Of a stretch of 64,000 bases of DNA, positions 68-63,400 are shown one piece after another. Source of the DNA: Amoebidium appalachense (Eukaryota; Protista; Ichthyosporea); contig CAVNZM010000006.1 of NCBI GenBank assembly GCA_963693365.1, positions 62,001 through 126,000 on the forward strand. The letters are read 5' to 3'. The position numbers were made by a program, and so were the translations under genes. Positions within the stretch are counted from its first letter, which is position 1. Each line of letters opens with the position of its first letter. The notes under the pieces are model-generated. The model was not told the DNA's origin, ran no database searches, and worked only from the letters and a program-made list of their open reading frames with translations.

Positions 68-3000
68 CTCCCCTGATGGCTGGGGGAATGACGACCTAGC
101 AAAGACATCGCGTATGTGTTTGATGTGGGTCTCATCCAACTCCCCTGCATCTGTGTTGCCGTCCAGACCTGCAGCCTCTGCACACACACAGTCGGTGTTA
201 AAGGGGAAGAGAAAAGGTTGGGGGGGGGGGGGATAGGCAACTTTGGCGGTTTGGGTTTGTGTGGGCAGGGGGTGGGGGCGGAAGGCGGGAGGGGGGAGGG
301 GAGGGAGCGGGCGGGCGGGTGGGGGGGGGGGGGGGGGGAGGGGGGGGAGGGGGGGAGGTGGGGGGAAGGGGGGGGGGGGGGGGGGGGGGGGGGGTTTGAT
401 ATCCATGCATGATGGCAGATGCACTGGCTTCACGGCCACCCCTTGACCACACACACCCGTGAGGACTATCCTGCCGCATCTTGGCCCCCACGTGCATACT
501 CAACACTTGGCACCTGACAGGTTGCTGCACCACCTCCTCACCACCCACATACCCTCTGCTACACATGTCACCCCAAACCACACACCACACACCACCCACC
601 ACCCACCACCCACCACCAACTACCGATTATGCACACGGCGCACCTATGATCTCCGCTGCCTTTGCGGCGTTGATGGATGAGAACTGGGACGTGAGGGTCT
701 TCTTGACGTTGTACTTCTTCTCCCCGGCATCGCTGTGTAAAGGTGGGCGGGGAAGTATGTCAGGGCATGGTGGGTGGGTATGTGGGGGCATGGCACGCTG
801 ATAAGAGGTCCGACATATGTGCAGCCATGCAGGGCACAACACTAGAGCCCTGCCACTGGCTACTGCTTGACAAACACACAGGACCATAGTCACAAGGGTA
901 GGGGGGGGGGGGGGGGATGCATCATAAAGTACGAAAGTACAGGTAAATCGCTAAAAACACACTGCAGAGTGCAAACCATACAAAAAAAAGTATGCATAAT
1001 AAGGAGAGCCCATCCTCGGGGGGGGGGGGGGGGGGGGGGGTTCTCACCTGAATATCTTCCTGAGGACAATCAGGTCGACAGACGAGGGATGGTGCTTGAC
1101 TTCCTTGGCTGGGGGGGGCATGTGGTCCGTGCGCCGAGAATAGCGCACAGCAAAGCACTTGCTGTGGGGGTCTGTGTGAGTTAAAGCACTTGCTGAGGGG
1201 GTCTATGTGAGTAAAAGTGTTTGATGGGGGGGTCTATGTGAGTAAAAGCATTTGATGGGGGGGTCTATGTGAGTAAAAGCACTTGCTGGGGGGGTCTACG
1301 TGAGTAAAAGCACTTGCTGAGAAGGTCTATGTGAGTAAAAGCACTTGCTGGGGGGGTCTATGTGAGTAAAAGCACTTGCTGGGGGGTCTATGTGAGTAAA
1401 AGCACTTGCTGGGGGGGTCTATGTGAGTAAAAGCACTTGCTGGGGGGGGTCTGTGAGTAAAAGCACTTGCTGGGGGGTCTATGTGAGTAAAAGCACTTGC
1501 TGGGGGGGTCTATGTGAGTAAAAGCACTTGATGAGGGGGTCTGTGTGACTAAATAATGACTAAATGCACTTGCTGGGGGGGGGGTCTATGTGAGTAAATG
1601 CACTTGCTGGGGAGGTCTATGTGAGTAAATGCACTTGCTGGGGGGGGGTCTATGTGAGTAAAAGCACTTGCTGGGGGGGTCTATGTGAGTAAAAGCACTT
1701 GCTGGGGGGGGTCTATGTGAGTAAAAGCACTTGCTGGGGGGGTCTATGTGAGTAAAAGCACTTGCTGGGGGGGTCTATGTGAGTGGTGCACAGCAGTAAA
1801 TGTGTGCGCATGTGCTCCTGTGCGCACTTCTGTATGCGGTGAAAGTCTGTGTGTGCACATGTGTGTGTGTGTGTAGGGGGGGGGGGGGGGGGGGAGAAGG
1901 GGGGTTTGCTTGCCTGCGTGCATGCATGTGCATGTGCACATGTGCACATGTGTCCATGTGTGTGTGTGTGTGTGTGTGTGTGTGTGTGTGTGTGTGTGTG
2001 TGTGTGTGTGTGTGTGTGTGTGTGTGTGTGTGTGTGTGTGTGTGTGTGTGTGTGTGTGTGTGTGTGTGTGTGTGTGTGTGTGTGTGTGTGTGTGTACGTG
2101 CACACCTCTGGTCTGGGCAGGCAAAGCGGAACTCGAACTCGGCATACGGGGTGATGACGGCCAACTGGCGCATGTAGCTGAGAATACGGGCCTGGGGGTA
2201 GTGGGGGTCAGCATGCAGCGAAACAGAGGCCTATGTGTGTTCACTGTGTGCATGCTCGGTAGGGTGTGAAACACAGGTGGGGTTACATCTCCTCTTGGAT
2301 GTTCTCCCGGTCTGTGTGGCTGCATGGCTGTGCACCATGATGTTGCTGCAATGACTGGTGGGCTATTGGACGTGAGGGGCATCGGGTGCACTCCTGGGCA
2401 TGGTGGTGGTGTGGGGGGAAAGGAGGGTAGGGCAATGAGTAGTACAGCTGTGGATGCATTCTCATAGTGCCAATCCCTAAAAGGCATATCTGATAGGCCA
2501 CCACACACAAACAAACATGCTACCACACAAACAAACACGCTACCACACACAAACAAACATGCTACCACACAAACAAACACGCTACCACACACACAGCATG
2601 CTACCACACACACAGCATGCTACCACACACACTGCATGCTACCACGCACACACACACACACCTACCCTGTATGGGGACCATGACCCCTCTATGACGACAC
2701 TAATCTCCGTGCCCCTCCAGCCCTCCGTGTTGTCCTCCTTTGTGTGGCTGATGATCCGGGGCATGTTCTTGTAGATGTCGATGTCCAGGATGCATGACGT
2801 CACAGCATGGCTGGGCCCCCGGCTGCTGCGGATGTGCAGGGGCTGCCCAGTGCTCATCTTCGACCAGATCAGGGCCTGGGGGGGGGGGGGGTAAGTTCAG
2901 GACCTGAGTAGAGGATGGGGAGGGGGGGGGGGGGGTAGGTGTGTGGTGGGTGGGTGTGCATGTGTGTTAGGGGAGAGGAGGGGAAGGAGGGGTGTGGAAT

Positions 3001-60400: not shown

Positions 60401-63400
60401 TAGGCGTGTATAGTTGTTGGTTTTGGAAGTGTGGAAGGGTTTGTAAATGAATGTATCTGCCTGTAAGTGTTTGAAGCCTTATCAGTCTTCGCACGTATTT
60501 TATTTCGGCTTCCCGGGGGGGGGGTTGGAAGGGGGGGCATGAGGCAATCCCTTTGTTATTGTTATCAAAGATACTGTTCCGATTTAGTGCCACGGTATCG
60601 GCCCCCCTCCTCCCCCCCTCTCTCTCTTCACACACACACACACACACACACACACACACACACACACACCGCCTCTCCCGAGTCCCATCCACCCACCCTT
60701 CTCCCTCTTGCGCATGTCCACCCCAACGAGGCCATCGAACGAGTTTAAGCTCTGATTGCTGTTCCTTGGGTTCCTTGTGTTCTGCCTGCAACCATTTGCA
60801 CAGACCCGTGCACTGCTCCACTCTTTCTCTCACATCTGTAGCTGTTATCATAGTATGGCGATTCTAACCCTCTACCCCCCCCCCCGCCACCTTTGCCGCA
60901 GGTGCTGTGTGAGTGTGTGGGGTTGGTGTCTCGCTGTGGATCCTTCCGGCTGTTCTCGGACATTCTGGATGCAGTAGAGGACCGCCGCCACTCAAAATCC
61001 TCCGTGTTTGCCTTCCTTAAGGTGTGCATACCCCCCACAGGGGGAAGAGTAGAGAAGAAAAAACCACCACATTTACCTACAAAAGAAGGTGGGGGGAGAG
61101 AAAGCAAACAACTGAAAAGAAAACACAAACACCCCTGTACCCACCAACCATCACCATCACCACCACCCACAGGGCACAATCCCCCCCTCAATCCATTGTC
61201 TGCTGTGTTGTGATGCCTGTCTAACGTGCTGACACAACCATAAGCACCTACACCACCTGCTCATGGTGTGTGCCTTAGGCCTTTGCAGTGTATAATGCTT
61301 AGTGTGTGTGTGCTTGAGGCCATTGCAGTGCATAATAACTAGTGTGTGTGTGCTTCAGGCTTTGCAGTGTATAATAACTAGTGTGTGTGTGCTTTAGGCC
61401 TGTGCAGTGTACAACAATTAATGTGTGTGTGCCTTAGGCCATTGCAGTGCATAATACTTGGTGTGTGCTGCATGCAAGCACTGGCCCTGGTATAATTACT
61501 AATAATAGTGTGTGTGTGCTGCATGCAAGCACTGACCCTTCCCTCAGGCCGTGCAGGCCGTCAATGCGCCCCGGCCAGGCAGCCGCTGCAGCATCCGGGC
61601 CATGGCCGTGGGGGGGGCTGGGACACAATCACCGTGGCACGGCCCGTGGATGCATACCTAGAACACGTATGCACTCGTTTAGGTCCCTCCCATATTTCGA
61701 ATGCGTGTGTCCCTGATATCTCGATCACTTAGGCGCCCAATACATACCTCTTCACATCCCGATTATGTATGCGCCCATAAATACCCCAACATATCTTGTA
61801 CACACGTATGCATCCACATATACCCAATACATATACCCCCCATATTTCGAAGACATGCGCATCCAACCCCCCATACCCCCCCCCCCCCCCCCCCTCCCCC
61901 CTCCCCCCCCTCCCCCCCCCCCCCCCGCCTCCCTCCTCCCTCCCCGCACACACACACACACACACACACACATACACAACTCCTCTTCCCCCACCGCCCC
62001 CCCACACCCCCCGCTCGCACACCCCTTCCTGCACCATGTGCTCACGCCCCCACCCCCCCCCCCCCAGGTTGACCTATCCCCCCTGTTCAGCACCCTGCCG
62101 CTGGACCTAGTTGTGGCCACTGTTGCTGCCCTCCTGCTGGAGCGCAAGGTGCTGCTGGTGGCAACCAGTCTCAGTGCCCTCTCACAGGCCACACATGCCC
62201 TGCTGGCCCTGCTCTATCCCTTCACATGGCAGGTGTGTGGGTGTGTGTGCACGTGGCTATGTCCCTGCAATGTAGGGATGACTGTGCACGTGGCTATGTC
62301 CCTGCAATGTAGGGATGACTGTGCACGTGGCTATATCCCTGCAATGTAGGGATGACTGTGCACGTGCCTATGTCCCTGCAATGTGCTGTGCTGTGGGATG
62401 ACTGTGCGCACATGTAGCTGTCCCTGTCCATCAGGGGTGTGCTGAGGGCGCAGGGTTGTGTCGGCTGGCCGATGAGCTTATGCTTGGGGATGGGCTGTGG
62501 GGCCGCTGTCTCTTCTTTGCATGGCCTTTGTGATGGACACATGGCACCCTCACAACGCAGCACGTGCTCACGCGCACACCCCCACCGCCAGCACGTGCTG
62601 ATACCCATTCTGCCTCTGCGCCTGCTCGACATGGTGTGCCTGCCATCGCCCTACCTTATGGGCCTGCTGGCTCCGGCCCTGCCTGCAGCCCAGAAGCTGC
62701 CCATGGATGATGTGCGTATGAAGCCCATGCGAGATGCCTATTTAGGATACCTTTTAGCCCCACACCATATGCCTATTTAGGATACATTGTAACCCCACAC
62801 CATATGCCTATTTAGGATACTCTGAACCCCACACCATATGCCCATTAATGACACCCTTAAACCCAAGCCACTTGCACATTTATGATGTGCATATCCCTAC
62901 ACTGGCCGTATGCCTGCCTGTGCCAGCCAAAACTGACACCGCCCATGCAGGTGCTAGTAGTGGACCTAGACCGGGGCACATTTGTGCAGTCAGCAGGGGA
63001 TGAGAAGGGTCTGCTTCCCTCTGCTGCAAGCACAGCCCTGGTCAATGCTGTGGCTAGGCACACCATCCCACGTACGTGCCCTTGCATGCGCACACACACA
63101 CACACACACACACACACACACACACACACACACACACACACACACACACACACACACACACACACACACACACACACACACACACACACACACACACACA
63201 CACACACATGCACATGCACACACACACTCACACATGCACACATGCACATGCATGCACACGCACACATATGCACACATACATGCACACATACATGCACATC
63301 TGGCCACACGTGCAGTCCACTGCAACCACGCATTCACTTGTCCACACACCCTGCCCCGTGCCTGTCCATGCACACAGATGGTGCCATGTGCCTGTGTATA

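Follow-up and report, generated by a model that had tools for sequence, protein, structure and literature searches.

Tandem repeats spanning exon-intron junctions in a 64-kb window of the Amoebidium appalachense genome

Introduction

An intron that carries many copies of its own splice junction raises two questions, namely what produced the copies and which of the sites is spliced. We addressed both for introns of TOP6B and ALKBH8 in a 64,000-nucleotide (nt) stretch of DNA from the ichthyosporean Amoebidium appalachense (assembly GCA_963693365.1, contig CAVNZM010000006.1, positions 62,001 to 126,000 of the forward strand), hereafter the window, whose first letter is position 1. An initial annotation of this DNA had described junction-built repeats in five genes and had presented the phenomenon as rarely observed, whereas it is already a named kind (PMC3087553, PMC1557585). 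The accessible parts of the literature describe "mirage" minisatellites in amphioxus, in Adh3, the globins BflGb6 and BflGb9, troponin C and PGBD5 (PMC3087553, PMC3902484), and junction-spanning variable number tandem repeats (VNTRs) in human F7 (intervening sequence 7, IVS7, 37 bp), IFI6 (6-16), CBS (intron 13), LMNB2 and PDGF (PMC1557585). The arrays reported here are locus-specific intronic minisatellites of the mirage type, which probably came from ordinary tandem duplication in repeat-prone introns and were likely kept because the splice site adjoining the exon still works.

Results

Copies of splice junctions in TOP6B and ALKBH8

Six genes were modelled by hand in the window: TOP6B, ALKBH8, NAPA, PSMA7, an SH3D19-like gene and a DENND2-like gene. 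The models of ALKBH8, NAPA and DENND2 start after their first exons, and the reading frames of NAPA and SH3D19, with GT..AG at all their junctions, were judged by eye and for one exon each by Pfam. The 47 introns of the six genes are all GT..AG and have a median length of 561 nt. When junctions were compared with their own introns and with length-matched pieces of other introns, copies were found at 3 of the 94 junctions at the strict threshold, where 0.05 were expected; looser thresholds gave 4 junctions against 0.27 expected and 7 against 1.40, all statistics resting on this one 64-kb window. A gapped echo test returned 11 of 94 junctions against 2.64; it was not kept as a count, since most of the added hits match microsatellites or G runs, and such matches arise under the null as well. 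The three clear cases are the acceptor of TOP6B intron 8, the donor of ALKBH8 intron 6 and the acceptor of ALKBH8 intron 11 (Table 1). At each of them the tandem unit holds exon and intron sequence across a real junction, as the initial annotation had described.

The three clear units have no match elsewhere in the window. Among all nine units examined seven have none, and the other two have short or microsatellite matches only. This agrees with the earlier view that the units are locus-specific and do not form a mobile family: in the window, no unit was found at several loci in the manner of a mobile intron or transposon family. Many of the copies, but not all, keep the AG or GT, namely 17 of 20 in TOP6B, 7 of 8 at the ALKBH8 donor and 3 of 3 ALKBH8 acceptors. 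The boundary copy is unlike the homogenised inner copies in TOP6B intron 8 and in ALKBH8 intron 6.

The TOP6B intron 8 unit consists of about 21 nt of intron, the intron end, followed by the first 10 nt of exon 9. The AG is intact and followed by exon sequence in 17 of the 20 units and is lost in three. The acceptor used is the last one, with exon 9 starting at 1161, and its unit differs from most copies at three positions. Translation of the 11 exons of TOP6B that lie in the window gives residues 1 to 356 of the protein P0121, which we take to be transcript-derived because its identifier is Trinity-style; exon 7 is 100% identical to P0121, and the best match that carries a name is from Sphaeroforma arctica (73%). 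Because the model equals P0121 (356 of 356 residues identical), the last of the 17 acceptors of intron 8 and the first donor of intron 6 are the sites used. Among the 16 spare acceptors of intron 8, 15 lead to a stop and one shifts the frame. The array at the donor of intron 6 (3414-3998) is real: its gapped junction score is 34, and the null reaches at most 21. However, the match takes in only about 5 nt of exon, and the exon probe is unremarkable alone, 9 of 93 other probes equalling its score. TOP6B also contains an 11-nt microexon (6812-6822, minus strand), which is present in P0121.

At the donor of ALKBH8 intron 6 we found seven copies with GT (11480-11945), which decay with distance from the exon, and a decayed eighth without GT near 12043. 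The first unit differs from copies 2 to 4 at about four positions. Any later donor would add an immediate in-frame TAG, and on the open-frame model the first donor is the predicted productive one. At intron 11 three exon starts are possible (14365, 14399 and 14431), and 14431 is used: a contig of X7 (depth 55), which is guessed to be an RNA run although none of the runs is recorded as RNA, skips 414 nt bounded by GT..AG from 14016 to this last acceptor, and its other end enters the previous exon, so that the contig is spliced at two junctions. Both spare acceptors lead to an early stop. The exon after intron 11 matches human ALKBH8 (E 9e-5), and a protein search with an ALKBH8 exon as query returned no candidate. 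At intron 10 (13922-13931, plus strand) an in-frame AG 9 nt upstream is passed over and the X7 contig uses 13931, again the exon-adjacent site. A further ALKBH8 intron (12714-12783, plus strand) is 70 nt long, far under the median, and repeat-free; it is possibly in an unexpanded state.

In TOP6B introns 6 and 8 and in ALKBH8 intron 11 the exon-adjacent site is thus the one found in the assembled major forms. Nearly every spare site leads to a premature stop, the feature that marks unproductive splicing coupled to nonsense-mediated decay. Spare sites might therefore serve as regulatory decoys that route part of the transcripts to such decay and tune the levels of TOP6B and ALKBH8, and human IFI6 and CBS provide cases in which two nearby pseudo-donors are in use, as far as the accessible part of PMC1557585 describes. 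We consider this improbable: stops are expected from any retained intron sequence, the two transcripts checked show the exon-adjacent site only, and the copies are decaying.

That the arrays are assembly artefacts is extremely improbable. A likely homopolymer error does occur at least once in the assembly, where the frame of DENND2-like exon 6 is shifted by one base at a G run (61610-61617), so the lengths of G runs in the TOP6B units may be inexact. The copies nevertheless carry shared and private substitutions, and at ALKBH8 intron 11 a contig of the DNA run X3, possibly the source of the assembly, covers 14311-14700 without a difference and spans all three copies. This check covers the triple. 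A contig of X1 begins at 14420, inside the repeat.

Junction-spanning events and intronic duplication in general

The initial annotation had proposed a duplication process focused on exon-intron borders, and alternatively selection acting on duplication in general. Complex arrays account for 18% of the 28,264 intron nt and simple runs for a further 14%, or 32% altogether. We searched complex 24-mers for near copies in their own intron in 46 of the 47 introns, leaving out NAPA intron 3 with its insertion. Such copies exist for 14.8-22.7% of complex intronic 24-mers, at every distance, for 3.6% of junction-spanning 24-mers (5 of 92 intron ends) and for 0.3% of exon-only ones. An event caller returned 21 arrays; after each was collapsed to one unit, four of the 21 events span a junction, with 4.8 expected, and in the strong set four of 16, with 3.2 expected. 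Junction-spanning copies are not enriched, and no special mechanism is needed in this window. Thus general intronic duplication together with the loss of exonic events would give the pattern, and selection filtering general duplication fits the data best. A process aimed at the junction itself finds no support in the number of spanning events. The same applies to slippage at borders linked to G-quadruplex (G4) motifs, since a regular expression found such motifs in four of the 21 events, none of which is among the four that span a junction.

Several observations weigh against ordinary duplication, followed by tolerance, as the full account. Assembled contigs show abundant forms only, and use of spare sites followed by decay is compatible with them. 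Run on shuffled introns, the event caller also gave 4-6 events. A count of arrays no more than 25 nt from a junction, a cut that was picked after the list was seen, gave 14 of 21 where 8.6 were expected (P 0.006); for the strong set it gave 12 of 16, with 6.2 expected (P 0.0007). A threshold-free Kolmogorov-Smirnov test likewise places arrays nearer to intron ends than uniform placement would (p 0.001-0.017). Introns hold 17 arrays in 28.3 kb, four times the density of the intergenic and insertion stretches, which hold 4 in 26.1 kb (P 0.006). Finally, 14 of 90 exon probes rank at p<=0.055 in their own intron, where about 5 are expected, and a part of the weak echoes may thus be genuine mirages that have decayed. 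The earlier proposal of duplication focused on borders therefore survives in part, as a nearness of arrays to intron ends, without an excess of spanning events.

This edge bias could be explained by undetected decayed copies, by arrays growing up to constrained signals, or by a mutational bias at intron edges. Under the last of these, duplication would be concentrated at intron edges, for instance by damage linked to transcription or splicing, with selection removing most junction-crossing events. Such a bias would account for arrays lying near junctions about twice as often as expected and for their density in introns. For simple runs the excess at edges is slight (20 of 122, with roughly 14 expected), and the edge bias therefore concerns complex units. 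On the other hand, spanning events are not in excess and lack G4 motifs, and the null assumes too long an original intron if old copies have decayed past detection, as the copies of ALKBH8 intron 6 do decay with distance from the exon. The same distribution would result if arrays grew until stopped by constrained splice signals, and the non-intronic comparison is largely insertion-like DNA that could be of any age. Taken together, we regard a mutational focus on edges as unlikely, and ordinary duplication in repeat-prone introns as the probable source of the arrays.

The arrays might also be intermediates of intron gain or intron sliding, a route to which the initial annotation had linked them. 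Mirages have been proposed to seed new introns, according to the accessible part of PMC3087553, and the duplicated exon piece of ALKBH8 intron 11 holds a CTRAC motif, which lies some 22 nt upstream of the AG in use. The AG/GT model of intron gain (PMC3443670, as described in the part available) shares with our arrays a tandem duplication involving splice-site sequence. That model makes a new intron from exon sequence, whereas here one edge is copied within an intron whose other end is unrelated, and none of the three arrays is a duplicated exonic segment with matching ends. Intron gain is not supported because the copies sit at only one end of each intron and because the three junctions read AG/CA, GG/GT and AG/AT, none of them the AG/GT on which the model is based. 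The TOP6B protein, moreover, aligns with relatives and is free of inserted residues. We therefore judge this explanation very improbable.

Borderline and unsupported echoes in DENND2, SH3D19 and NAPA

The initial annotation had also proposed aligning echoes against control sequences. Within the window this comparison left the three junctions above clear and several of the listed echoes at control level, so that junction-built repeats are clear in two of the five genes originally named (TOP6B and ALKBH8), borderline in DENND2 and unsupported in NAPA and SH3D19. The controls were exon probes of the 93 other junctions and chunks of other introns, and the DENND2 junctions themselves were modelled from sequence. 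The DENND2 echo near 62558 is equalled by 0 of 93 probes and 2 of 178 control chunks. For 61266-61541 a 12-nt probe is equalled by 1 of 93 probes and 2 of 120 chunks, and a 30-nt probe by 31 of 120 chunks. The donor echo near 62880, absent from the initial annotation, is equalled by 1 of 93 probes and 18 of 268 chunks and is also borderline. In contrast, the array at 62246-62388 is real but is not supported as a junction copy, 27 of 93 probes scoring as high. The echo at 60334 is not above chance: it is the best of 93 probes, but is equalled by 8 of 94 control chunks from other introns, on both strands. Both SH3D19 arrays are real and begin 0-5 nt inside the intron; their exon echoes are not above chance, as 79 of 93 (54065-54344) and, with a 12-nt probe, 35 of 93 (54483-54788) probes score as high. 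The NAPA echo at 30016 is not above chance either (6 of 93 probes and 7 of 92 chunks as high).

Table 1 Arrays, echoes and adjoining exons in the window.
Feature	Position (strand)	Unit	Basis	Remark
TOP6B exon 9	1048..1161 (-)		gene model matching P0121	
TOP6B intron 8 acceptor array	1152..1786 (-)	20 units of ~31 nt	echo test, unit alignment, P0121	
TOP6B intron 6 array at donor	3414..4010 (-)	47 nt, 12.5 copies		first donor used; borderline mirage
ALKBH8 exon 6 of model	11416..11495 (+)		gene model	
ALKBH8 intron 6 donor array	11480..12045 (+)	62 nt with 16 exon nt	echo test, unit alignment	
ALKBH8 intron 11 acceptor triple	14358..14446 (+)	32 nt	echo test, X7 contig	
SH3D19-like intron 3 array	54065..54360 (-)	62 nt		starts 5 nt after donor
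SH3D19-like intron 2 array	54483..54788 (-)			decayed; ends at acceptor
DENND2-like intron 5 array	61264..61541 (+)	40 nt		ends 6 nt before acceptor; weak acceptor echo, borderline
DENND2-like intron 7 array	62242..62388 (+)	37 nt		starts 9 nt after donor; purely intronic
DENND2-like intron 7 acceptor echo	62557..62568 (+)	single, AG + 8 exon nt		31 nt before modelled acceptor; borderline
DENND2-like intron 8 array	62734..62894 (+)	35 nt		starts 22 nt after donor; weak donor echo near 62880

Intron features and other elements in the window

A CTRAC motif lies within the last 45 nt of 22 of 44 introns, where 1.3 matches are expected, and marks the branch point. The commonest donors are GTGTGT, GTGCGT and GTACGT. 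Introns as a whole show a mild polarity, with G-rich starts (35% G) and C-rich ends (35% C). Two candidate selectors of the used site were rejected. A TTAAC motif precedes only the used TOP6B acceptor, yet intron ends show no enrichment of TTRAC (2 of 44). As for a pairing of G/GT-rich intron starts with C/CA-rich ends, the polarity is mild and TOP6B intron 8 starts CA-rich.

Inside NAPA intron 3 lies an open frame of 666 codons (35083-37080, minus strand) with no match in Pfam or PDB. It contains a YIDD motif, which we take to be typical of Penelope-like reverse transcriptases. A dispersed repeat of 130-160 nt occurs in three introns (896-1025, 33732-33896 and 63500-63650; 73-92% alike) and is probably a small mobile element. 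An open frame of 272 codons with hydrophobic stretches (17866-18681, minus strand) has no significant Pfam match and may be an unmodelled gene or element. In addition, a tandem duplication of roughly 720 nt was seen by eye in intergenic DNA (about 24010-25445), and two related 27-nt arrays with CCAAT boxes lie outside the modelled genes (15909-16142 and 16830-16907).

Discussion

The arrays of TOP6B and ALKBH8 resemble amphioxus mirages, as these are described in the accessible parts of the papers cited above, in several respects. In both, exon-intron boundaries are copied in tandem at the 5' or 3' ends of introns in locus-specific units, many but not all copies keep the AG or GT while normal splicing persists, and the boundary copies are unlike the homogenised inner ones. 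Unlike in amphioxus, the host is a unicellular holozoan, and the units number 20 in TOP6B, compared with 3-6 in BflGb6. Length polymorphism is a feature of amphioxus mirages, whereas here the copies are known from a single assembly plus contigs.

The human junction VNTRs, in the available portion of PMC1557585, have the design of ALKBH8 intron 6, a first unit that spans the donor followed by identical pseudo-donors, and in F7 only the most upstream donor is used. The human cases are on the donor side, whereas two of our three arrays are on the acceptor side, and scanning was tested experimentally in F7, whereas we infer it here. The CBS 844ins68 allele, as far as the accessible text of PMC2630376 goes, is likewise a duplicated junction whose downstream copy is strongly preferred and which yields normal mRNA; it is, however, a single duplication in a mammal and not an array.

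We found no mirage outside animals in the literature searched, which covered few subscription journals and no supplements. The main text of an ichthyosporean genome paper (PMC11244446) does not contain the terms "tandem repeat", "simple repeat" or "satellite", and the accessible part of PMC10078293 has no bearing on junction-spanning units. As far as these searches reach, the arrays are therefore of a known kind, mirage or junction VNTR, that is new in a unicellular, non-animal host.

Under ordinary duplication, a first duplication of 20-100 nt would arise by slippage or unequal exchange and could land anywhere. Copies wholly within exons would be purged, while copies in introns or over one junction would leave one intact exon and hence be tolerated. 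A tolerated pair could then expand and partly homogenise like any VNTR, with the boundary copy lagging behind. The outermost, exon-adjacent site would win through recognition across the exon, similar to exon definition, or through oriented scanning, and products of spare sites, which carry early stops or frameshifts, would be degraded. Accordingly described, the arrays are probably neutral, tolerated by-products.

A more far-reaching proposal, which we consider doubtful, is that the host has a duplication process biased to intron edges that seeds both edge-hugging arrays and mirages, and that, from as many as 17 near-identical acceptors, its spliceosome chooses the one adjoining the exon by an animal-like exon definition. 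If this were true, mirages would provide a natural assay, on a genome-wide scale, of how splice sites are chosen outside animals.

With this finding, and within the reach of the literature searches, mirage-type repeats are known from a unicellular holozoan as well as from animals, and a quantitative baseline is available on which the junction-spanning arrays of this window call for no special mechanism. Intron gain and intron lengthening took place in ichthyosporeans independently of animals, and exon skipping is raised in Sphaeroforma, according to the accessible part of PMC6142364. Therefore, the TOP6B array, in which 17 acceptors are resolved to the exon-adjacent site, offers a ready test of exon versus intron definition in ichthyosporeans.

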